Virus record (IMG/VR): IMGVR_UViG_2563366944_000002
Location: 1 to 20,260 of that record
DNA length: 20,260 nt
Direction: 5' to 3' (one strand)
Source of the DNA: a virus
Lineage: Duplodnaviria; Heunggongvirae; Uroviricota; Caudoviricetes
The notes beneath the pieces are model-generated. The model worked only from the letters and a program-made list of their open reading frames with translations. It had not been told where the DNA came from and ran no database searches. Below are positions 10,503 to 20,260 of this stretch, in pieces. Positions within the stretch are counted from its first letter, which is position 1. The number at the start of each line of letters is the position of its first letter. Made by a program: the position numbers and the translations under genes.

Positions 10503-10821
10503 TGATTTTTACCGCCACAGTGGCGCTGTTTGCAGGAGCATTTTCCCAGGCTACCCCCGCGGCCACCGCACCCTCTGCAGCCAGCTGCACAACCCCGTCC
10601 TTCAGATAAACCACCGCGCCGGACTGAATGTCGTCAGCAGACTGTTTGGGCAGAAGGAACACGCCTTCGGCAAAACCGTCACCGGCATCACCGGCAGGAA
10701 TATCGGTAATGGCCACGGCCACCATACTGCCGACCACCACCGCCGCACCGCTCAGGATGGTCTGATCTCCGGCATTCACCAGTTCAATGGAGGTACCGTC
10801 CTGTACAAAATTTTTCGCCAT
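10495..10821 (-). CDS. Small Gly/Ala/Val-rich capsid-associated protein (possible decoration or cement protein, DUF2190-like)
   Basis: 108-aa ORF MAKNFVQDGTSIELVNAGDQ..., immediately after the major capsid gene, with a GGAG RBS 9 nt upstream. The family assignment is from memory of similar prophage proteins, not a search. Confidence 0.5.
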   Translation of the reverse strand: MAKNFVQDGTSIELVNAGDQTILSGAAVVVGSMVAVAITDIPAGDAGDGFAEGVFLLPKQSADDIQSGAVVYLKDGVVQLAAEGAVAAGVAWENAPANSATVAVKINV

Positions 10822-10837
10822 AATGCTGTTTCTCCGG

Positions 10838-10886
10838 ACAGCCCCTGTGGGGCTGTTTTTCAGGCATAAAAAAAGCCCTTTCGGGC
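10838..10886 (-). terminator. Two stem-loops between the major capsid gene and the next gene; the upstream one is a weak terminator or attenuator
   Basis: On the minus strand: GCCC-GAAA-GGGC followed by U7 (10868-10886), then ACAGCCCC-ACA-GGGGCTGT (10838-10856) directly before the RBS of the 108-aa ORF. Confidence 0.35.
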
Positions 10887-10908
10887 AGTGATTGTGATAA
10901 CTCGGTTA

Positions 10909-12888
10909 TCAGGCCACCGACGAACGCACCAGCCCGCGCCAGTCAAGTGGTGCCACTCCGGCATCAATACGGATTTTTGTGGCAATGCCGTCAGTGGTGA
11001 AACCTTCCTGCTGATCAATGTATGGAGTGTCCACACCATCCAGCCAGGCCACTTCAATGGTGTCAGTGCCCTGTGCCGCCGCCAGATACCAGGTTTTCGG
11101 ATCTGCCGCATCAAGACGCGCTTCTGCAATCACCTCAGCAAAGTTCTGGATGGGGTTAATGACACCGGCGTTTGCATCCGCCCCTTTCACACTGGCCGAT
11201 TTGATGGTCTGGTTCGCCACCGTCTCCAGTGCCACCGGTACCAGCATAAAGGCCGGACGGATATTCAGGGCGCGATCGCCTTCTTTCTGCAGGCGCATCA
11301 TCTGACGGGCCGCATCCAGTCCGGAAACGGAAATCCCACCGGTAGCAATATTTTTGTGATCGGCATGGAACAGCGCCTTACCGTCTGACAGTTTCGGGTT
11401 ATCCGTCAGCACCTTGTAAACCAGGTCACCAATCGTTGCCTTCGCCGCACGCCCCATCTTCATCGGCACGTCCACCAGCATATTCAGATCATCATTGATA
11501 ATGGCCTGGCGGGTGATGGAGAAAATCTCCCCGTAAGTGGCCAGTGCAATGGTCTCCTTGCGATCTGAGGTGGTGATGTATTTATACTCCGCCCCCTCAC
11601 GAACCTGGCGCAGAGAACCAAAACCGCCCATCCCCACGCGATACGCTGTTTTGAAGTCTGACAGGCGTCCCTTACGGGTCCACTTCTGGAAGGTTTCTTC
11701 TGATTCCTCCCAGCCCTGGATCAGCCCCTTGTTCGACACATCCAGCAGAATATTGCCAAAATCAGAGGTGCTGTGCGTCAGCGCCAGCCCGACCATCTGC
11801 ATGGGGTTATAACTGGCCACCCCAATACCGCGCTCCGTCAGTGACATGCGAGCCCATTCACGCAGGGTCATCCCGTTATAGGCGTTATCCTTCTCGACAT
11901 TTTCAAATCCGGCACGGGCCAGCATCGCCTGGCGGATCCCGTCCCCCACAAAATTGCCGTTTCCGGCATAAATATGGGCCGGTGTGTTTTTGTTGGTCGG
12001 CGATGACTCCTTGCCCATTTCATTCAGCAGACGTTCACGGGCCATTTCCAGCGAACAGTCAGGATCAGCCACACACTGCGCCTGAAGCGCCTGATAGCGA
12101 CCGCCAAACATGGCAAACAGATCGTTAATGCCTGACATGCGGGCTTTCTGCTCAGCCATAACGCGGGCGCGAATGGTCGCCTCATCAGACACTGCCGGTA
12201 CCGGTGATGGTTCTGTTACCGCCGGTGCAGGGATTGTCACTGTGGTATCACGCGGGGCACTGTTGTATGGCTGCGTGATCATATTTCGGATGGATTCCGG
12301 CATCTTTTTAAATTCCTCTGTACGTTTTGACTGAATACATGCCATTGCCTTAACGGCTGGCGTCACCTGGTCTGCAAATCCGTGTGCCAGACACTCGGCA
12401 CCGGACATCCAGGTCTCATCCGCCAGCATGGCGGCAATTTCATCGGTAGTTTTTCCGGTTTTCTGCGCATATACCGGCACCATAACCGACTCAAGTTTGT
12501 CCAGACGTTCGGCATAAGTGCGCATTTTCTCCGCATCACCACCGCTGATCCCCCAGGGTTTATGGATCATCATGAAGGCATTTTCCGGCATAATGACCGT
12601 GTCACCGGCCATCGCAATCAGGGATGCCATCGAGGCGGCAACGCCATCCACATACACGGTAATGGCCGCACCGTGATTTTTCAGGGCATTAAAAATGGCG
12701 ATGCCTTCAAAAACATCGCCACCCGGTGAGTTGATGTGGAGATTAATGTGGGTGATATCACCCATGGCATTCATATCGCTGACAAACTGCTTCGCGGTAA
12801 CTCCCCAGAAACCAATATCGTCATAAATATAAATATCCGCCTCACCCTGACCACCCGCCTGCATCCTGAACCAGGATTTATTCTTCAT
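10909..12888 (-). CDS. Prohead protease (ClpP / S14-like) fused to HK97-fold major capsid protein
   Basis: The N-terminus MKNKSWFRMQAGGQGEADIYIYDDIG, ClpP-like serine motif GVAASMASLIAMAGD and MIHKPWG are followed by a long C-terminal capsid-like domain. The track ORF extends to 13080, but that start would overlap the portal by ~200 nt; the ATG at 12888 overlaps only the last portal codons. No obvious Shine-Dalgarno, so the start is uncertain. Confidence 0.8.
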   Translation of the reverse strand: MKNKSWFRMQAGGQGEADIYIYDDIGFWGVTAKQFVSDMNAMGDITHINLHINSPGGDVFEGIAIFNALKNHGAAITVYVDGVAASMASLIAMAGDTVIMPENAFMMIHKPWGISGGDAEKMRTYAERLDKLESVMVPVYAQKTGKTTDEIAAMLADETWMSGAECLAHGFADQVTPAVKAMACIQSKRTEEFKKMPESIRNMITQPYNSAPRDTTVTIPAPAVTEPSPVPAVSDEATIRARVMAEQKARMSGINDLFAMFGGRYQALQAQCVADPDCSLEMARERLLNEMGKESSPTNKNTPAHIYAGNGNFVGDGIRQAMLARAGFENVEKDNAYNGMTLREWARMSLTERGIGVASYNPMQMVGLALTHSTSDFGNILLDVSNKGLIQGWEESEETFQKWTRKGRLSDFKTAYRVGMGGFGSLRQVREGAEYKYITTSDRKETIALATYGEIFSITRQAIINDDLNMLVDVPMKMGRAAKATIGDLVYKVLTDNPKLSDGKALFHADHKNIATGGISVSGLDAARQMMRLQKEGDRALNIRPAFMLVPVALETVANQTIKSASVKGADANAGVINPIQNFAEVIAEARLDAADPKTWYLAAAQGTDTIEVAWLDGVDTPYIDQQEGFTTDGIATKIRIDAGVAPLDWRGLVRSSVA

Positions 12889-14380
12889 GCTGGCTGTCGG
12901 TGGCCTGCTGACGCTGTTGTTCAGTTCCGGCACTGTTGCCTCCTTTGTCGTTGACGGGGTCAGTATCAAAGACCAGCCCCAGTCTGCTGTTTTCATCAAT
13001 TTCAGCCTTGCGGCGACGTTTGACCTCATCCGGATTGCGCCCGCCGGCACGCACCCAGTCAGATTCTGTCGCTGCACCACCCCGGATCTGAATTCTCCAG
13101 GCTTCAGCTTCCTTAACCGGGTCGATCCACGGCATCACCGGACCGGAATACGTCGCGTTATATAGCGTTTTCATCTCCACATCCGCCGGAATTTTCAGCA
13201 GACCTGCCGCAACCACCATATTCAGCCATGTCCGGTACACCGGGCGGGTTACCGCGCCAATAAAACAGTCCTGCAGGATCAGGTAACCATCCGTGGACTC
13301 GACCAGCTCCTGCCGCTGGGCACTGTAGGTGCCGTTATAGTTACGCGCCGCACTGGAAAAACTCAGACGACTGCCCGCTGCCACTGCACGCAACTGGCCG
13401 TTGCGGAAAGTTTCAAGGTTGGGATTGGGACGGTCTGATTTGACCATGCCGATATCCTCGCCCTTGCGCAAATCGTCATAAATAATACCCGGGGTGATAT
13501 GGACTTCCCGGTCGGTATCTTTGATCCCCGGATCTTCATAGTCCTGTCCGTCCCCTTTACGGATATACAGTCCCAGCGCCGCGGCAATACGCGCAGCCGT
13601 CAGTTCCGCATCCTCATATTCCTTAAGGGCACTGATCCGCATCAGCACCCCCGATAACATGGATGAGCCTCGCGTCTGATGCAGACGGCGTATGAACTTC
13701 AGGTGGATCATTTTTCCGGCAGCGATTTCTTTCGTATCACTCTGCCGACCGCTGACCGGATAATTTTTATAAACCAGATATTTTTTCGGTCTTCCCCACT
13801 CATCAAGAAAAACCCCCTGATTCAGCCCGGCGGATTCATCAGTGCGCATGGGAACAAAATCCGGCTCCATCGCCTCAAGCCAGAATGGCACTCCCGCCGT
13901 CCGTTCCAGACCGTTTCCCGCACCACTGACCATCTGCGCAAACACTTCACCATCCCGCAGCCAGGTCCGCAGCAGTAAACGTTCAAGCACGGGACGGGTA
14001 TACTGCCCTGTCACATCCGGACTCACGGACCATTCAGCCCACAACCGACGGATATCCGCAGCCAGCTCTGCCGCCATTTCCCCGTTTTTTCGTAATGGCT
14101 GAGGCTCCACAATAATTCCCCTGGCACCAATCACCCGCTCTTCCAGCTTGTCAAACACACCAATCACCAGGTCATGATTGATATCCAGAAAACGGGCCTG
14201 CTCCCGCAGGGAAACCGCACCGTATTTACTGAGCTGATCAGCAGAGCGATTTTCCCGCCGGGCTTTATGTGTCCGGGTCGGTTTCACCGCCTCATAGGCC
14301 ATGATTAACGCCCTTGAACGCAGTCTGGCTGCTTTCCACCCGGGGGAAAACACGCCTATCACATCATCAATAATTGCCAT
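12878..14380 (-). CDS. B: Portal protein
   Basis: 500-aa ORF between the W-like and capsid genes; its start overlaps the W-like stop (TAATG). Size and position match lambda gpB. Confidence 0.88.
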   Translation of the reverse strand: MAIIDDVIGVFSPGWKAARLRSRALIMAYEAVKPTRTHKARRENRSADQLSKYGAVSLREQARFLDINHDLVIGVFDKLEERVIGARGIIVEPQPLRKNGEMAAELAADIRRLWAEWSVSPDVTGQYTRPVLERLLLRTWLRDGEVFAQMVSGAGNGLERTAGVPFWLEAMEPDFVPMRTDESAGLNQGVFLDEWGRPKKYLVYKNYPVSGRQSDTKEIAAGKMIHLKFIRRLHQTRGSSMLSGVLMRISALKEYEDAELTAARIAAALGLYIRKGDGQDYEDPGIKDTDREVHITPGIIYDDLRKGEDIGMVKSDRPNPNLETFRNGQLRAVAAGSRLSFSSAARNYNGTYSAQRQELVESTDGYLILQDCFIGAVTRPVYRTWLNMVVAAGLLKIPADVEMKTLYNATYSGPVMPWIDPVKEAEAWRIQIRGGAATESDWVRAGGRNPDEVKRRRKAEIDENSRLGLVFDTDPVNDKGGNSAGTEQQRQQATDSQHEE

Positions 14381-14616
14381 TAAAACCTCGCCAGTTTAAA
14401 TCCTGGTTTTCCCCGCCTGCGGCTCACCATCGCGGCAAGCCTGCGTTCCCACTCCTGACGTCCGGCGCGGATCTGAGAAAGGCTTTCCAGCGTCAGTTGC
14501 TGTCCGTTGAAGGTGACAGACTTCCCCTCCAGTACGGCCATTTCCGCTTCACGGTACCGCTGTATCATTTCTCTGGCTTCTTCTGTGCTCACAACCAGCC
14601 TCCTGATGTTATCCAT
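14380..14616 (-). CDS. W: Head-tail connector / head completion protein, gpW-like
   Basis: 78-aa ORF with C-terminal RRRGKPGF, matching the lambda gpW C-terminus (…QRRRGPAGFYV as remembered); sits between terminase large subunit and portal as in lambda (A-W-B). Confidence 0.7.
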   Translation of the reverse strand: MDNIRRLVVSTEEAREMIQRYREAEMAVLEGKSVTFNGQQLTLESLSQIRAGRQEWERRLAAMVSRRRGKPGFKLARF

Positions 14617-16712
14617 GGATTATCTTCCGCACGCTCCGTCCGCAGTTTTTTCTTCCGGCGACGGCGTTTTTCTGCCCCGGCCGTCAGTTCCGGGGATACC
14701 GTTTCACCAGAACGCTCCTGCGGGAAGACGAGCCACGTTTCCCGCTGTGCCCAGTCCGGTGCGGAGGGCCAGCGGATCTTTTCGTAACCATGCAGAACGG
14801 CAAGCGCATCCGCATAAACCAGCAGGTCAAACGCCTCGTTAGCTCCCCTGCCCGGTTTTCGCCATTTTCCGTCACTGCCGCGCTCTTCATAGGTCAGCTC
14901 ATCGTAAAACCATCGCCCCAGCCAGTCGGGAAAGTGGATATAGTTCGGCCCTGGTGTGTCACGCCACAGGGCATTATTTACACGGTCCTTAAACGCATCC
15001 GTCTGAACCAGCCACAGCGCGACATCGCCACTGGCTCTGGCACGGCGGGCACTTCTGCCGGTATTATCCGGGAAGGTACGGTTAATCAGCCTGTCACGGC
15101 GAAGTCCATCCCCCTTGAACAGAAACACCCTGTTGCCCAGTCCGTCACTCCGGCAACGACGCCAGAAACGATAGGCGTTATCTGTCACCCCGGCTTCCCC
15201 TCCCGTATCCACCGCCATGGCCATCAGACGCATGCGCACATCCGGATCAGAAGCCAGCGGCCATGTTTTATGGAACACATCCGTCAGCAACAAATCCCAG
15301 TCCTCCGGATATGCCGCCGGATCAACCGGCAGACTTTCACCGTTGGGACTGCAGCGCAGTGAATGCCGGATGTTATAGCGATCAACAATCCAGCGTTCCC
15401 CCTGCTCTCCGTATCCGGTGATCTGCACAACAAAACGGCGATTTTTACCGCCCTGTACGTCAACCGTTGCCTCAATAAAACGCACACCATCCGGCACAGA
15501 TCGCCGGGGAAACGGCTCGGCACGCTGTTCAAGCAGTTCACTTTTACGCTGTTCCGTGGCTGAACGGGGCAGATAGGGGCGTCCGATATCGGTGTTCACC
15601 ACCGCTTTCAGGGTCTCTTCACTGCCGGTTCGCTCATACTCTTCTTCTGCCGCCAGCAGTTTAAAAATCAGTTGTTCCCAGGTCTGAAACGCCGCAGCCG
15701 GCCCCTCCATCCAGAATGACGCAATCCGGGAATTTCGTGGCGTTCCGGTGATACTGCCGTCCGCCACCGCCCGTTCACCTTCACGAAGCCAGATCCCTTT
15801 GTTATTCAGTTCGCGTTTCTGCTCAGGGGCAATCAGCCCGCGACAATGCGGACACATCAGACGGGCAGCCTGACCGGCAGCCACAAAATCCGGGTTATTC
15901 CGGTATCCGGTCATGTTATCCATCACCGGCTGAAAATATTCCCCGCAGTGCGGACACGGCCAGTACCACCGGCGGCGGTCTCCCCGGTTATACAGTGACA
16001 GGATCCCCGTTGTTGGCGGTGCCTCATGTGCGCCGCCACAGCGCCATTTGGTGTCAGTGATATCCCGCCCCGGCGAACTCTCGACCAGGGTCATCCCCGA
16101 GGACATAAAGGTGGTGGTACGCTTTGATGCCAGGGTGAAGGCATCCCCTTCCCCGTCCACGTTTTCAGGGAAACGGTCATAATCCGTCAGCGCCACACGA
16201 CGGTAATCCGAAGAAGAAAATACAGTGATCGACGGCCAGCCAATCTTCAGGAAGGAGCCGTCAAGAAACATTTTATCGTGGACGTTGTTGTCATTACGGG
16301 AAGGACTGAGACGCTTACTGACCTCCGGGCTGTGACGAAACGTTCTGGAAAGACGCGTTCTGGAGTGTTCCCGCGCCTTCGTCTCGGTCATTTGCACCAC
16401 CAGCATATCCGCCGGATCACAGATGATGCCGTACACAATCCAGCCGTCAATCAGCCCTTCGGTTTTCCCGGTTCGCGCAGGTCCCACAAACACCACCGCG
16501 TCATATTCACGGGCTGATAATGTATTAATAGGGTCAATCATATAGGGCGTCAGCGATGACTCCCACGGACCGGAAGTATTGGCTCCCCGTGGTACCCGCA
16601 TATAACGCCTGATGGCTTCCGCTACTGGTAACCGGCTGGGCGGGCGAAACAGCGAGGCCACTTCGCGCCAGATATCGGATGCGCGGCTATGGCTCTCGTT
16701 CACCTGATTCAC
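14589..16712 (-). CDS. A: Terminase large subunit (gpA family)
   Basis: 707-aa ORF with a Walker-A-like VFVGPARTGKT and overall gpA-like architecture; start overlaps the small-subunit stop (ATGA). Confidence 0.9.
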   Translation of the reverse strand: MNQVNESHSRASDIWREVASLFRPPSRLPVAEAIRRYMRVPRGANTSGPWESSLTPYMIDPINTLSAREYDAVVFVGPARTGKTEGLIDGWIVYGIICDPADMLVVQMTETKAREHSRTRLSRTFRHSPEVSKRLSPSRNDNNVHDKMFLDGSFLKIGWPSITVFSSSDYRRVALTDYDRFPENVDGEGDAFTLASKRTTTFMSSGMTLVESSPGRDITDTKWRCGGAHEAPPTTGILSLYNRGDRRRWYWPCPHCGEYFQPVMDNMTGYRNNPDFVAAGQAARLMCPHCRGLIAPEQKRELNNKGIWLREGERAVADGSITGTPRNSRIASFWMEGPAAAFQTWEQLIFKLLAAEEEYERTGSEETLKAVVNTDIGRPYLPRSATEQRKSELLEQRAEPFPRRSVPDGVRFIEATVDVQGGKNRRFVVQITGYGEQGERWIVDRYNIRHSLRCSPNGESLPVDPAAYPEDWDLLLTDVFHKTWPLASDPDVRMRLMAMAVDTGGEAGVTDNAYRFWRRCRSDGLGNRVFLFKGDGLRRDRLINRTFPDNTGRSARRARASGDVALWLVQTDAFKDRVNNALWRDTPGPNYIHFPDWLGRWFYDELTYEERGSDGKWRKPGRGANEAFDLLVYADALAVLHGYEKIRWPSAPDWAQRETWLVFPQERSGETVSPELTAGAEKRRRRKKKLRTERAEDNPWITSGGWL

Positions 16713-17185
16713 ATATCGGCCTCATCACAACAGTCAATGACTGCCTTTTCCAGTGTGTCGCGGATCTCATCAACCACAATCTGTACTTCATTCAGTTGTG
16801 ATGCGGTCCACCCTCTGTCCCTTTCCAGCCGGTCAGGCCAGGTTTCCAGTACCTGAACTATCGCTTTCACCACGACAGAAAAGGACCGCCTGACATCACT
16901 GACAGGCACAAGCTGAACAGTTTCATGCTGAAATTTAAGACGCTCGCGCTCGGACTGATACCATGCCTTCCGATCATGTGGGTTCATCTCTTCATCTTCG
17001 GAAGTCGGTGGTTTTTCCAGCAACGAAATAATCAAATCCGTCAGGAGATACAGTTTTTTCTTTTCATTACTGCCTGGTGCAAGAGGAACATCCGCCATTC
17101 TGGCGGCAACAGTCTGCCGGTGCAGACCTGAAAGGGCTGCCAGTTGATTAATATTTAACTTCATATTTTTCAGCTCGCCGTCCAT
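16709..17185 (-). CDS. Nu1: Terminase small subunit (Nu1-like, N-terminal HTH)
   Basis: 158-aa ORF with an N-terminal helix-turn-helix (LNINQLAALSGLHRQTVAARMADVPL) and acidic C-terminus, ~200 bp downstream of the putative cosN as in lambda. Confidence 0.75.
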   Translation of the reverse strand: MDGELKNMKLNINQLAALSGLHRQTVAARMADVPLAPGSNEKKKLYLLTDLIISLLEKPPTSEDEEMNPHDRKAWYQSERERLKFQHETVQLVPVSDVRRSFSVVVKAIVQVLETWPDRLERDRGWTASQLNEVQIVVDEIRDTLEKAVIDCCDEADM

Positions 17186-17430
17186 TTACATCCCTCCACA
17201 TAAACCGCTGAACAAAAGTGGCTCTTTTTTTGTAAAGAAATGCCGCCATATAAAGATGTCGAACAAAAATCAACCGCAATCATCATCTTTTTAATGCTAA
17301 ACACATTAAAAACAATAAGTTACCATTATGATGATGATGACGATAAAATCACAAAAATGCGCCTTTTTCCGCGCCGCCCGCCCCGTGTACAGCCCCACCC
17401 CACCGGGAGGACCCGTCAGCCAGACATAAA
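17186..17430 (-). other. cos region: candidate cosN (~17369-17388) plus an AT-rich cosB-like segment with inverted ATC/GAT triplet repeats
   Basis: The minus strand reads ACGGGGCGGGCGGCGCGGAAAAAGGCGCATTTTTGTG, similar to the lambda cos junction (ACGGGGCGGCGACCTCGCGGGTTTTCGC). AATCATCATC (17278-17287) and GATGATGATGA (17330-17340) form an inverted repeat around AT-rich DNA. Confidence 0.45.
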
Positions 17431-17453
17431 AAAACCGCCATGATGAGGCGGTT
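17426..17453 (-). terminator. Rho-independent terminator ending the lysis-proximal transcript before cos
   Basis: On the minus strand: stem AACCGCC / GGCGGTT with a 7-nt loop, followed by a U7 tract (plus-strand A run 17428-17434); 20 bp downstream of the 70-aa ORF stop. Confidence 0.5.
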
Positions 17454-17473
17454 TAATAATCACAGGTATCAGG

Positions 17474-17686
17474 TTACTGCTCACTCCATACAAAATCATC
17501 GCTTCCCTTTCGATAAGAGCCGTAATGCACTTCATATCCATCGCCAACCATTTTTGCTTTTGTCTCGGCAACCTCTTTTGTTGCATAGACGCCTACAAGA
17601 TGCCATGGCGATCCTTTAACAACAGCCCATCCTTTAACCCAACCTTTGTTGATTGGATCTGGCTCTAATCCTTCCGCAATAAACAT
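17474..17686 (-). CDS. Hypothetical small protein (70 aa), cargo gene between Rz and cos
   Basis: Strong RBS (AGGAG, 6-nt spacer) before the ATG at 17686; AT-rich relative to structural genes; hydrophilic, Trp/Gly-rich. Not recognised. Confidence 0.6.
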   Translation of the reverse strand: MFIAEGLEPDPINKGWVKGWAVVKGSPWHLVGVYATKEVAETKAKMVGDGYEVHYGSYRKGSDDFVWSEQ

Positions 17687-17727
17687 AATTATCTCCTTTT
17701 TGGGTACCCGGAGACATTCTATGTCAT

Positions 17728-17952
17728 TCAGGAAACAGGCAACAATGTCGCTGATACAATCCCCGCCATATTTGCATTCAGATCACATTCAACAGAGATT
17801 TCTTCATCCGTGGCATCCACTTCATATGTTCGTGAATAACATTCCGTGCATTTACCACTGAATGTGCCTTCAGCCAGAACACGCCCACGCTGTAAAACCC
17901 GGAACGGAATTGTTCCGTTAAAGGGCTTTACGGTTACCAGTAATTTCTTCAT
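17728..17952 (-). CDS. Hypothetical small protein (74 aa), cargo gene between Rz and cos
   Basis: RBS GGAGG before the ATG at 17952, 23 bp after the Rz stop. No signal peptide, so not Bor-like. Not recognised. Confidence 0.6.
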   Translation of the reverse strand: MKKLLVTVKPFNGTIPFRVLQRGRVLAEGTFSGKCTECYSRTYEVDATDEEISVECDLNANMAGIVSATLLPVS

Positions 17953-17975
17953 ACATCCTCCGGATAATAAAAAGA

Positions 17976-18440
17976 CTACTTAATGCACTGGGTGCGGATA
18001 TATTCCTGCAATCCCCGAATCATTCTGTCGCTGGTTGCGATTCGCTCTCTGAGGGTGAAATAATCCCGTTGAGCGGCGTCAGTAAGTCCGGGGCGGGCTG
18101 CATCATCCACGCCGGTGGTGCCGGTGGCTTCACGCACGGCTGGACAGACTGCTCTGATGCGCAACCGACGACGACCAGCGGCAATATCATCACGCAGAGC
18201 ATCATTTTCAGCTTTCGCATCAGCTAACTCCCTTGAGTATTTTTCATCGAGTGCAGCAACATCACGCTGGCGCTGCTGCATATCAGTAATGGTTGCATTT
18301 GCCTGCTCCAGCTCACTGACTTTTTTATCGCGCTGCTCTTTGTAGGTTATGGCGTTATCACGGTAATGATTCAGCCCCAGACTAAGCGCACCACAGGCCA
18401 CCAGCAGGGCAATGATGACCACGCACAGTACGCGGTTCAT
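17976..18440 (-). CDS. Rz: Spanin inner-membrane subunit Rz (i-spanin)
   Basis: 154-aa ORF with an N-terminal TM segment then NHYRDNAITYKEQRDKK...AKAENDALRDDIAAGRRRLRI, closely matching lambda Rz as remembered. Confidence 0.92.
   Translation of the reverse strand: MNRVLCVVIIALLVACGALSLGLNHYRDNAITYKEQRDKKVSELEQANATITDMQQRQRDVAALDEKYSRELADAKAENDALRDDIAAGRRRLRIRAVCPAVREATGTTGVDDAARPGLTDAAQRDYFTLRERIATSDRMIRGLQEYIRTQCIK
18020..18220 (-). CDS. Rz1: Spanin outer-membrane lipoprotein Rz1 (o-spanin), embedded in the +1 frame of Rz
   Basis: MRKLKMMLCVMILPLVVVGCAS... with a lipobox (VVGC) and proline-rich CVKPPAPPAWMMQPAPDLLTPLNGIISPSE, the same pattern as lambda Rz1. Confidence 0.85.
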   Translation of the reverse strand: MRKLKMMLCVMILPLVVVGCASEQSVQPCVKPPAPPAWMMQPAPDLLTPLNGIISPSESESQPATE

Positions 18441-18441
18441 T

Positions 18442-18579
18442 TCACCACCAGCGTATCTGACCGATGAAATAACCGGAGGCCATAATCACAAACACCAGCC
18501 AGATAAGAATGAACTTCCAGGTGGATAATTTTTCAGCCATCACTCGAATCTCCCGAATCAGTTTGCTAAAATCAAACAC
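18442..18579 (-). CDS. Candidate 45-codon single-pass membrane protein between endolysin and Rz (GTG start; alternative ATG at 18540 gives 32 aa)
   Basis: Not in the track (below 60 aa). AAGGAG sits upstream of a GTG at 18579 with a short spacer. Hand translation: MFDFSKLIREIRVMAEKLSTWKFILIWLVFVIMASGYFIGQIRWW; the stop is 1 nt from the Rz start. One hydrophobic helix. Prediction only. Confidence 0.3.
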   Translation of the reverse strand: MFDFSKLIREIRVMAEKLSTWKFILIWLVFVIMASGYFIGQIRWW

Positions 18580-18615
18580 ACTTTCTCCTTTGACTTTTCC
18601 AGAGTCAGGAAACAC

Positions 18616-18649
18616 AAAACCCCGCTTGCAGCCAACAAACGGGGTTTTT
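18616..18649. terminator. Hairpin with T/A tracts on both sides (bidirectional terminator-like) in the endolysin-Rz gap
   Basis: CCCCGCTTG / CAAACGGGG stem (one mismatch) with a 7-nt loop, followed by TTTTT on the plus strand and preceded by AAAA (a U tract on the minus strand). Confidence 0.4.
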
Positions 18650-18738
18650 ACTTTTATTCACTTAGGTTTTGCCAGTTCTCAGGATTTCGTGTTATCCGTC
18701 CGCATTAGCCAACGTCATTTTTCAACAAAATATTCTGC

Positions 18739-19272
18739 TTATTTGTCAATTCCCCAGCACGCCAGCGCGCTCTCCTGGTCACGCCGTGAGACCTGTCCAT
18801 AGCAGTTATTTGAACGAATACGGCAGTCTCTGCCACCGTCCTTAATCCACCAGCGAATCGCCTCACATGCTCCCCTGCGATCGCCTGCATTAATTCGTTT
18901 ATAAAACGTCGACGGGAAACACTTACCGGGGCCAATGTTATACGGGCAGAATGACGCAATACCCGCTTTCTGTGGTTCAGTCAGTGGCACTTTGATGTTT
19001 TTCGCCACCCATGCCAGCGCCTTATCACGCTCAATGGCGTTAACCTGGTCGCATTTTTCCTTCGACAACTTCATGCCGGGGAGGACAGGCTTACCATCCA
19101 CCCGGGTGGCTCCACGGCAGATGGTCCAGATACCCGCGCCATCACGGTATGCCGTGGTGTGGTTACCTTCCTTTTCATCCAGAAACTGGTCGAGAATGTC
19201 AGGCGCAGGCGCACCAGCGGCAATCAGCGCCAGAACGGCAGCCGACAGGCCGTATTTGATTTTTGCGTTCAT
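18739..19272 (-). CDS. R: Endolysin, lysozyme-like with N-terminal signal-anchor-release (SAR) domain
   Basis: 177-aa ORF with an N-terminal weakly hydrophobic Gly/Ala-rich segment (GLSAAVLALIAAGAPA) followed by a catalytic E-x8-D-x5-T pattern (EKEGNHTTAYRDGAGIWT), as in P21-type SAR endolysins. Weak RBS. Confidence 0.9.
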   Translation of the reverse strand: MNAKIKYGLSAAVLALIAAGAPAPDILDQFLDEKEGNHTTAYRDGAGIWTICRGATRVDGKPVLPGMKLSKEKCDQVNAIERDKALAWVAKNIKVPLTEPQKAGIASFCPYNIGPGKCFPSTFYKRINAGDRRGACEAIRWWIKDGGRDCRIRSNNCYGQVSRRDQESALACWGIDK

Positions 19273-19400
19273 GGATATTTATCAGGATTTATCGGTTCCG
19301 AATCCCTGGATATGTTAAATCTTCAGCCCGCCAGCGGTAGGACACTGGCGTTTTTCCTGATGGCTGAAATATATCTGACAATTTCAGTAGAGGATTAACC

Positions 19401-19715
19401 ATGCATAACGATCAACATAATTATGATTTATGCCTGCAAGCCATAAATGAGCGGGTAAAATCAGAGTGCCTCTTACTCCTCCCACAAGAACACGATGCAG
19501 TAAAATCCATTCAGGCTGAGCCGTATGGACATCTCACACCTGTGACTCTCGGCATTATCGCCAGAGCATTAACACAGCCCATGCTTATGCGTATTAAGAC
19601 CAATATAAATAACTGGTTGAATGAAGAATTAAGCTACCTTGATTGTGAGTGGGACAATCATTACGCAAAAACACAAAAAGAACGCATCTTCAGTCGATTA
19701 TCCAGCAACAGATAA
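19401..19715 (+). CDS. Hypothetical protein (104 aa) on the opposite strand to the late operon, AT-rich cargo gene
   Basis: GAGG RBS 8 nt before the ATG at 19401; region is clearly more AT-rich than the structural genes; convergent with the 177-aa ORF (9 bp between stops). No recognisable motif. Confidence 0.55.
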   Translation: MHNDQHNYDLCLQAINERVKSECLLLLPQEHDAVKSIQAEPYGHLTPVTLGIIARALTQPMLMRIKTNINNWLNEELSYLDCEWDNHYAKTQKERIFSRLSSNR

Positions 19716-19724
19716 CGAGCCACC

Positions 19725-20258
19725 TTATATACGCCCTTTCAGATAAGTCATCCCCGGCTGCATCCAGTCAACAGGTGCTTTCTTAAAGGGCGTATTATCA
19801 AAATCACGCAGAAGAGCCTCCAGCACAACTGCATCATTGTCAGCACCACTGGCCATCATTTCAATCTCAGCTGCTACCTGCAGATATCCCATGCAACGAC
19901 CAATGCGCTTCATCAGCCCCTGCTTTTTATTGTTCTTCAGGTAATCAATGGCAAATTCAATGAGCGCCTCACTATGCTGGTGCGATGGCGGTGTTAATTT
20001 CCCATTTTCTGAGATGGTTATTTTCCCGCCATCTCCGTATACAACAAAGGATGGCCGGTTACACTCCCATTCCTGATCTTTATCAGGTGCAGACGCAATA
20101 AAATAACGTTTATTTCCTTCCTCTCCGGCACTTTTAACCGTAATGGAGTACTCAGACTGCAGACAAGACGCCTCTTTTTCTGACCGCAGTGTTGACGGCG
20201 GCATCTTCAGAGAACCAGTAATTCTTCCCGGTAGCTTTCCTTTGTAGGTTATCAACAC
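19725..20258 (-). CDS. Hypothetical protein (at least 177 aa; the start lies within 3 nt of the window edge, so it may be N-terminally truncated)
   Basis: Long ORF in AT-rich DNA upstream of the endolysin on the late-operon strand; hydrophilic, no TM segments, so not a holin. Not recognised. Confidence 0.5.
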   Translation of the reverse strand: MLITYKGKLPGRITGSLKMPPSTLRSEKEASCLQSEYSITVKSAGEEGNKRYFIASAPDKDQEWECNRPSFVVYGDGGKITISENGKLTPPSHQHSEALIEFAIDYLKNNKKQGLMKRIGRCMGYLQVAAEIEMMASGADNDAVVLEALLRDFDNTPFKKAPVDWMQPGMTYLKGRI

Positions 20259-20260
20259 AT

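Follow-up and report, generated by a model that had tools for sequence, protein, structure and literature searches.

We analyzed the lysis genes at the right-hand end of IMG/VR virus record IMGVR_UViG_2563366944_000002, a 20,260-nucleotide (nt) stretch of Caudoviricetes DNA referred to here as the window. The endolysin gene lies close to the right edge of the window. A preliminary description reported that no holin gene stands next to it and proposed either that the holin is located outside the window and separated from the endolysin by inserted genes, or that the cassette is rearranged or defective. The features at the window end are listed below together with the holin gene of a close relative, locus L001 of E. 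coli MSB1_4I, which shows 6 mismatches to the window in an overlap of 11.4 kilobases (kb) and whose coordinates become window coordinates when 8899 is added.

18739 to 19272, minus strand: endolysin R, 177 amino acids (aa), a candidate signal-anchor-release (SAR) endolysin of the T4-lysozyme / R21 family, assigned from Pfam and PDB matches, its N-terminal segment and its triad
19273 to 19400, no strand assigned: spacer of 128 base pairs (bp) between the endolysin and orf104 starts, endolysin 5' leader on the late strand, no credible open reading frame (ORF)
19401 to 19715, plus strand: orf104, a 104-aa soluble protein (phrog_1853, E 8.4e-50) with a GAGGA Shine-Dalgarno sequence before its ATG
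19725 to 20260, minus strand: 3' two-thirds of orf268, cut by the window edge; 268 aa in full and intact at L001 10826-11632
20536 to 20751 in window-equivalent coordinates, outside the window (L001 11637-11852), minus strand: 71-aa pinholin S of the P21 S family (PF04971, phrog_9876)

The P21-type holin and the SAR-type endolysin

We found that a P21-type holin gene is present 276-491 bp past the window edge, on the late (minus) strand and 1,263 bp upstream of the endolysin start, in every relative that is identical or near-identical to this end of the window. Over positions 17900-20260, six complete E. coli genomes match the window at 100% identity, and locus L060 shows 4 mismatches in 11.5 kb and 0 in 10792-20260. 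The 71-aa holin matches Pfam PF04971 'Bacteriophage P21 holin S' (E 9e-33) and phrog_9876 'holin' (E 2.4e-40), and its RefSeq label in L001 is 'class II holin family protein'. Its second transmembrane domain (TMD2, residues 36-56) exceeds the Kyte-Doolittle threshold while TMD1 is weakly hydrophobic, and 56 of its 71 residues are identical to those of S21. Judged by these matches, a P21-family class II holin stands upstream of the endolysin and on the same strand in relatives that are identical at the window end, and our data strongly suggest that the same holin lies beyond the edge here. The proposal of a holin beyond the window, with other genes between it and the endolysin, was thus borne out. 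The idea of a rearranged or defective cassette was not, since a canonical holin lies just past the right edge on the same strand and no convincing late-strand terminator lies in between. Timing control, which the preliminary description regarded as an open question, is no longer one with a pinholin at +276; a canonical holin past the right edge, with read-through into the endolysin, is what it had named as telling against its view.

We found the exact endolysin protein encoded at 10 loci, which belong to two different structural phage backbones. In all 10, the 71-aa holin is present, the lysozyme gene is directly preceded by orf104 in the opposite orientation, and Rz/Rz1 follow downstream. A 268-aa gene with a DUF1327 domain is called in 6 of these loci, and the other 4 have the same holin-to-orf104 spacing. 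The genes are present at the positions given above, holin and orf268 are intact, and the order of the genes recurs. We consider it very probable that the right edge of the window falls within an intact lambdoid lysis cassette of the type found in phage 21 and in Shiga toxin (Stx) phages, with ordinary pinholin timing control and an interposed, conserved accessory pair of genes.

The whole holin-to-endolysin stretch occurs in 53 complete genomes of E. coli, among them 55989 and strains of the O104:H4 outbreak, and a 'class II holin family protein' is annotated in each of the best 30 of these 53 matches. Among IMG/VR sequences, 45 loci contain a relative of orf104, and the detected gene order is the same in all 45 as far as the contigs reach: holin (minus), X domain with or without DUF1327 (minus), orf104 (plus), endolysin (minus) and Rz (minus). 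The holin is detected in 43 of them, and the remaining two contigs stop short of it. Since a gene between a P21-type holin and the lysozyme recurs in so many genomes and phages, we regard it as a standard trait that has already been annotated. Approximately 99% of Stx phages combine a pinholin with an R21-like SAR endolysin (PMC8136144), and the holins of Stx2a phages belong to the P21 S family (PMC10462455).

The endolysin matches PF00959 Phage_lysozyme (E 7.8e-25) and the PDB entries 3hde (R21; E 1.1e-16) and 4zpu (DLP12 RrrD; E 2.1e-16). It begins with MNAKIK-YGLSAAVLALIAAGAPAP, so that Lys4 and Lys6 fall within its short cytoplasmic N-terminus. Residues 7-24 are weakly hydrophobic, with 56% Gly/Ala/Ser/Thr, and an E35-x8-D44-x5-T50 triad lies C-terminal to the YGLSAAVLALIAAGAPAP segment. 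On sequence grounds, these features are consistent with a SAR endolysin of the R21 type.

Within the window, no ORF of at least 60 aa in 19273-20258 has a hydrophobic segment (Kyte-Doolittle, six-frame ORFs of at least 25 aa), in agreement with the preliminary description, which had found no holin-like ORF of this size there. The sole hydropathy match, a 33-aa ORF at 19748-19849, is out of frame inside orf268 and too short for a holin. The ORF at 19725-20258 is not a complete 177-aa gene; its frame is open to the window edge and is cut there. The absence of a holin concerns approximately 1 kb bounded by the window edge and has no statistical weight of its own. Two further points made earlier also stand: the non-coding gap at 19273-19400 is exactly 128 bp and is followed by a gene on the opposite strand, orf104, and the stretch upstream of the endolysin is AT-rich (44% GC versus 55% in the window; GC fraction 0.443 for 19273-20260, 0.545 for the endolysin and 0.55 for the whole window).

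We next consider the start of the holin. Its long form begins with MYQM and has no Lys in the N-terminal extension. A Lys in the N-terminus of S21-71 gives that form its antiholin character. An S21-like MKSM allele was observed together with an identical orf268-orf104-R module in loci L055 and L056 (8522-8737), and the holin of Stx phage H-19B has the downstream Met only. The dual-start antiholin logic may therefore differ between holin alleles.

The gene pair between holin and endolysin

The frame of orf268 runs 273 nt past the window edge to an ATG in genomes that are identical over the last 2.36 kb. This ATG lies 4 nt after the holin stop codon, and its Shine-Dalgarno sequence is within the 3' end of S. 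The protein (phrog_1085, E 6e-158) begins with a DUF1327/YdfR N-domain (aa 1-100), continues with a linker and ends with a conserved C-terminal domain, referred to here as the X domain (approximately aa 155-268). Residues 1-100 match Pfam PF07041 with E 9.3e-44 and 148 bits, against a gathering cut-off of 25, which places orf268 in the YdfR/DUF1327 family. Only approximately the last 10 residues of the DUF1327 domain are inside the window. The X domain has a Ka/Ks of 0.31-0.36, and its AlphaFold2 (AF2) model has a predicted local distance difference test (pLDDT) score of 74-96.

The gene that follows the holin varies in its domain content. It encodes 115 aa with the N-domain only in H-19B, 268 aa with the N-domain and X domain in the window, 297 aa with the N-domain, a coiled coil and the X domain but no orf104 in L004, and 213 aa with a coiled coil and the X domain, accompanied by orf104, in L005. 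These variants, compared as sequences, amount to domain shuffling. An exhaustive search with the C-terminal part of orf268 returned 20 cluster representatives only. In distant homologs, 31-45% identical, a DUF1327-like N-domain is likewise joined to the X domain by a variable linker; because of this common layout, the 268-aa two-domain protein looks full-length and the 103-115-aa YdfR forms look truncated. The DUF1327 N-domain is detected after the holin in 31 of the 45 IMG/VR loci, while L005 and the remaining loci have the X domain only. In L007 and L008 the orf268 homolog precedes the holin, from which other genes separate it, and the holin of L008 belongs to a different family. Since these homologs precede the holin, the link of orf268 to the lysis cassette is one of neighborhood and not of fixed position. 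By eye, further ORFs resembling DUF1327-X N-terminal modules are found at L006 511-1044 and 2769-3116 and at L007 963-1532. This likeness is suggestive of extensive domain shuffling and paralogy in the late-region DUF1327-X family.

The Prokaryotic Genome Annotation Pipeline (PGAP) annotates a YdfR-family pseudogene 'missing C-terminus' in L001 (11297-11632) and L004 (3055-3390) and leaves the remainder unannotated. We rejected the view that this flag marks a broken gene, as the 268-aa frame (297 aa in L004) is intact and conserved. The flag seems to be artefactual, arising from an annotation model that was built on the truncated 103-aa protein of K-12. Literature searches found no functional studies of ydfR or DUF1327.

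The partner gene, orf104, is convergent with orf268, and their stop codons are 9 bp apart. The Ka/Ks values of orf104 (0.44 and 0.11) and of the X domain indicate that both are real genes under selection. In locus L006, a 111-aa ORF shares 43% identity with orf104 (E 7e-34) and is convergent with an orf268 homolog, with no gap between the two, and the X domain of this homolog is approximately 40% identical. Since L006 keeps both partners, the convergent pair is conserved as a unit. Indeed, orf104 adjoins an X domain in 45 of 45 IMG/VR loci. A scan of GTDB species-representative genomes gave no match to orf104. When orf104 and orf268 were compared to Pfam, NCBIfam and PADLOC (E at or below 0.1), the only match was DUF1327 on orf268, and neither protein was placed in a defence or toxin-antitoxin family. 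PHROGs comparisons of the interposed genes returned 'unknown function' phrogs only, and no PDB sequence was matched below E 0.07 in profile searches. As read from their sequences, the interposed genes are a conserved and selected accessory pair.

The spacer between orf104 and the endolysin is well conserved. Its mean column identity is 90% across variant cassettes whose orf104 proteins are only 68-78% identical. It contains a plus-strand hairpin, CGCCAG-N10-CTGGCG followed by TTTTT (approximately 19329-19355), whose pairing variants keep through G-U on the plus strand. Immediately ahead of the Shine-Dalgarno sequence of orf104 lies a 7-bp inverted repeat, CTGAAAT-N10-ATTTCAG. A consensus scan of the spacer found no sigma-70 promoter for orf104.

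Alignment to H-19B revealed one further feature of the interposed region.

~19339 to ~20195, no strand assigned: 857-bp segment absent from H-19B, with flanking microhomology CCG / CTGAAGA and a GC fraction of 0.441

This segment comprises orf104 and all of orf268 that follows the DUF1327 domain. It is the one indel between the window and H-19B here, either an insertion in the window or a deletion in H-19B. Among 5426 E. coli genomes, the segment is present at full length in 95 and in part (the X-domain portion) in 780. The preliminary description had called the interposed genes inserted foreign cargo. This is only half right. The minus-strand gene is a full-length member of the YdfR/DUF1327 family, which is usual at this site (K-12 prophage Qin, H-19B), and the difference from H-19B is the one 857-bp indel.

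The remainder of the late region

The other features of the late region within the window are the following.

18616 to 18648, minus strand: terminator-like hairpin with U-run between the R and Rz ORFs, 14 pairs, RNA fold -23.4 kcal/mol, z -3.98
18442 to 18579, minus strand: small ORF with a single transmembrane segment at its C-terminal end; 45 aa from a GTG or 32 aa from the ATG at 18540 (phrog_6632, E 1.4e-29)
17976 to 18440, minus strand: Rz i-spanin, 154 aa (PF03245, E 8e-47; phrog_13, E 2.8e-74)
18020 to 18220, minus strand: Rz1 o-spanin, 66 aa, in another frame within Rz (phrog_3198, E 9.8e-29), with a lipobox-like VVGC
17728 to 17952, minus strand: hypothetical ORF, 74 aa (L001 annotation)
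17474 to 17686, minus strand: hypothetical ORF, 70 aa (L001 annotation)
16709 to 17185, minus strand: small terminase
14589 to 16712, minus strand: large terminase

Extending the region rightward, as the preliminary description had suggested, recovered both the holin and a Q-like gene in the relatives. The late-strand genes upstream of the holin encode a Q-like antiterminator, a NanS-p-like esterase (SASA/DUF6645), DUF1378 and DUF826. The Q-like antiterminator (phrog_753, E 3.4e-76) lies 3.7 kb upstream of the holin on the same strand. This arrangement of Q, NanS-p, DUF1378 and DUF826 is the known late-region layout of Stx phages (PMC10462455), here without stx. Between S and R, a terminator scan found only one late-strand terminator-like site, a weak 6-pair stem inside orf268.

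Downstream of R, the stop codon of the small ORF adjoins the Rz start (TGAaATG). Gene calls in 8 of the 10 exact-endolysin loci include this ORF at 45 aa, tblastn detects it in 6 of the 45 IMG/VR cassettes, and a Pfam search gave no match. The hairpin at 18616-18648 is GC-rich and flanked by T-runs on both strands. It resembles an intrinsic terminator within the lysis cassette and may mark a mosaic joint, as the Stx2-converting phage 86 carries ant in the same interval. Based on the profile matches, the spanin is of the two-component type with Rz1 embedded in Rz, and PF06085 Rz1 matches the same embedded ORF in L061. Between Rz and the small terminase, at the position of bor in lambda, an AT-rich block (16750-18000, GC fraction approximately 0.44-0.45) contains the two hypothetical ORFs.

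Operation of the cassette, alternative readings and meaning

The cassette resembles those of phage 21 and the Stx phages H-19B and 933W in its 71-aa holin of the P21 S family with two Met starts, in its R21-family lysozyme with a Gly/Ala-rich N-terminal segment and an E-x8-D-x5-T triad, in its embedded two-component spanin, and in its site downstream of Q, NanS-p, DUF1378 and DUF826 (PMC8136144; PMC10462455). It differs from them in the 1,263 bp that separate S and R, with an opposite-strand gene inside, and in the extra small membrane ORF and hairpin between R and Rz; furthermore, the long holin form starts with MYQM and not with the MKSM of S21. The cassette is also like that of the Stx2-converting phage 86 (NC_008464 / AB255436), which shares the 857-bp segment at 100% identity and has its genes in the order s, orf5 (268 aa, YdfR family), orf6 (104 aa, opposite strand) and r. 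Unlike the window, phage 86 has ant between R and Rz and stx2 as well, and its structural module is a different one of the podovirus type. The cryptic K-12 prophage Qin (essQ-ydfR-rrrQ-rzpQ/rzoQ) likewise has a DUF1327 gene 4 nt after a 71-aa holin gene and before a 177-aa lysozyme gene. However, YdfR of Qin is 103 aa long, the N-domain alone, with no X domain and no orf104, and ydfR overlaps rrrQ. In H-19B the order is S, the 115-aa DUF1327 ORF and then R.

The mechanism that we propose is built on the S21/R21 and lambda Q paradigms. The late order on the minus strand is Q-like, NanS-p-like, DUF1378, DUF826, S, orf268, orf104 (opposite), R, the small transmembrane ORF, Rz/Rz1 and terminase. 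By analogy, Q-modified RNA polymerase starting from pR' would read S to Rz/Rz1 as one message, across the 1,263-bp gap between S and R, and this message would include the antisense of orf104 and the small membrane ORF. The hairpin at 18616-18648 would be read through by the antiterminated polymerase. R would be exported by Sec and held at the membrane, tethered and inactive, until the pinholin triggers at its programmed time and depolarizes the membrane, whereupon R would be released, refold and become active. Rz/Rz1 would then disrupt the outer membrane and finish lysis. Since it starts 4 nt behind the S stop, with its Shine-Dalgarno sequence inside the S 3' end, orf268 is probably co-expressed with the lysis genes. 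In turn, orf104 would be read convergently from a putative promoter of its own.

Several points weigh against an intact cassette with ordinary pinholin timing. The best complete-genome match to the whole 20.26-kb window is 98.1%, so that the extension past the edge rests on near-identical relatives. A consensus scan did not locate pR', and the late RNA includes 452 nt of untranslated sequence antisense to orf104, across which read-through is inferred. Finally, the MYQM start without the Lys of S21-71 means that fine timing control may differ from that of S21.

We also considered whether the interposed pair takes part in lysis control, with orf268 as a cytoplasmic modulator of the pinholin or of SAR release and orf104 as its antagonist or partner, a role for orf268 comparable to those of T4 RIII and P1 LydB. 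Such a role is compatible with the holin. The start of orf268 directly behind the holin stop, a DUF1327-family gene after the P21-type holin in K-12 Qin, H-19B, L004 and 31 of 45 IMG/VR loci, the convergent pairing of X domain and orf104 that is kept at approximately 40% protein identity, the purifying selection on both, and the presence of distant orf268 homologs in the late operon beside lysis genes would all fit. Yet neither protein is similar to known lysis regulators or has a membrane segment, and the DUF1327 gene is uncalled in 4 of the 10 exact-endolysin loci, though the spacing there is unchanged. The homologs of L007 and L008, which precede the holin with intervening genes (in L008 a holin of another family), fit a general accessory-insertion site between Q and the lysis genes. 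Since truncated forms of 103-115 aa are common, the C-domain also seems dispensable for the cassette, which counts against such a role. On balance we consider lysis control by the pair unlikely. More narrowly, DUF1327-X and convergent orf104 could be a dedicated regulator pair of pinholin/SAR cassettes, for example a cytoplasmic tuning factor and a lysogen-made antagonist; nothing positive points to a lysis role, and we hold this version to be slightly less likely still.

An impaired cassette, in which polarity or convergent transcription due to the 1.26-kb spacer and its opposing gene uncouples R from S, the state expected of a cryptic prophage in decay, would account for the antisense stretch, for S and R standing without direct coupling, and for a terminator-like hairpin that also separates R from Rz. 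We regard it as very improbable, for the lysis ORFs are all intact, and 53 genomes, 45 viral contigs on different backbones and the deposited genome of an Stx2-converting phage retain this arrangement under purifying selection. Furthermore, an antiterminated polymerase would be expected to pass terminators, just as Q-modified polymerase ignores them in lambda. Least probable of all, and in our view hardly credible, is holin-independent lysis as in phage Mu, with the 45-aa ORF at 18442-18579 as a candidate releasin for the SAR endolysin. In Mu, which combines the SAR endolysin gp22 with the releasin gp25 (DUF2730), basic residues in the cytoplasmic N-terminus of the endolysin confer releasin dependence (PMC9239132), and the window has a similar short basic N-terminus (Lys4, Lys6) and a small membrane protein near the spanin genes. 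The ORF between R and Rz, with its one transmembrane segment, is conserved. Against this, a pinholin is present in the relatives, and the small ORF has no match to DUF2730 or another Pfam family, has its membrane segment at the C-terminus and not the N-terminus, and is detected in just 6 of 45 IMG/VR cassettes. The likeness is superficial, and we rejected a holin-less releasin system of the Mu type, as a holin is present and no DUF2730 protein is found among the small ORF, orf104 and orf268.

Our data indicate that the 'missing' holin is an artefact of the window edge and that the type of cassette is already known, deposited and annotated. What is mildly new is that a YdfR-family gene flagged as a pseudogene appears to encode an intact protein of 268 aa and two domains, and that its convergent partner is conserved. 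The 103-aa YdfR of K-12 would then be a truncated form. The full-length gene often travels with orf104, and these two uncharacterized genes are both widespread in the prophages of pathogenic E. coli, including O104:H4 and Stx2 phage 86.

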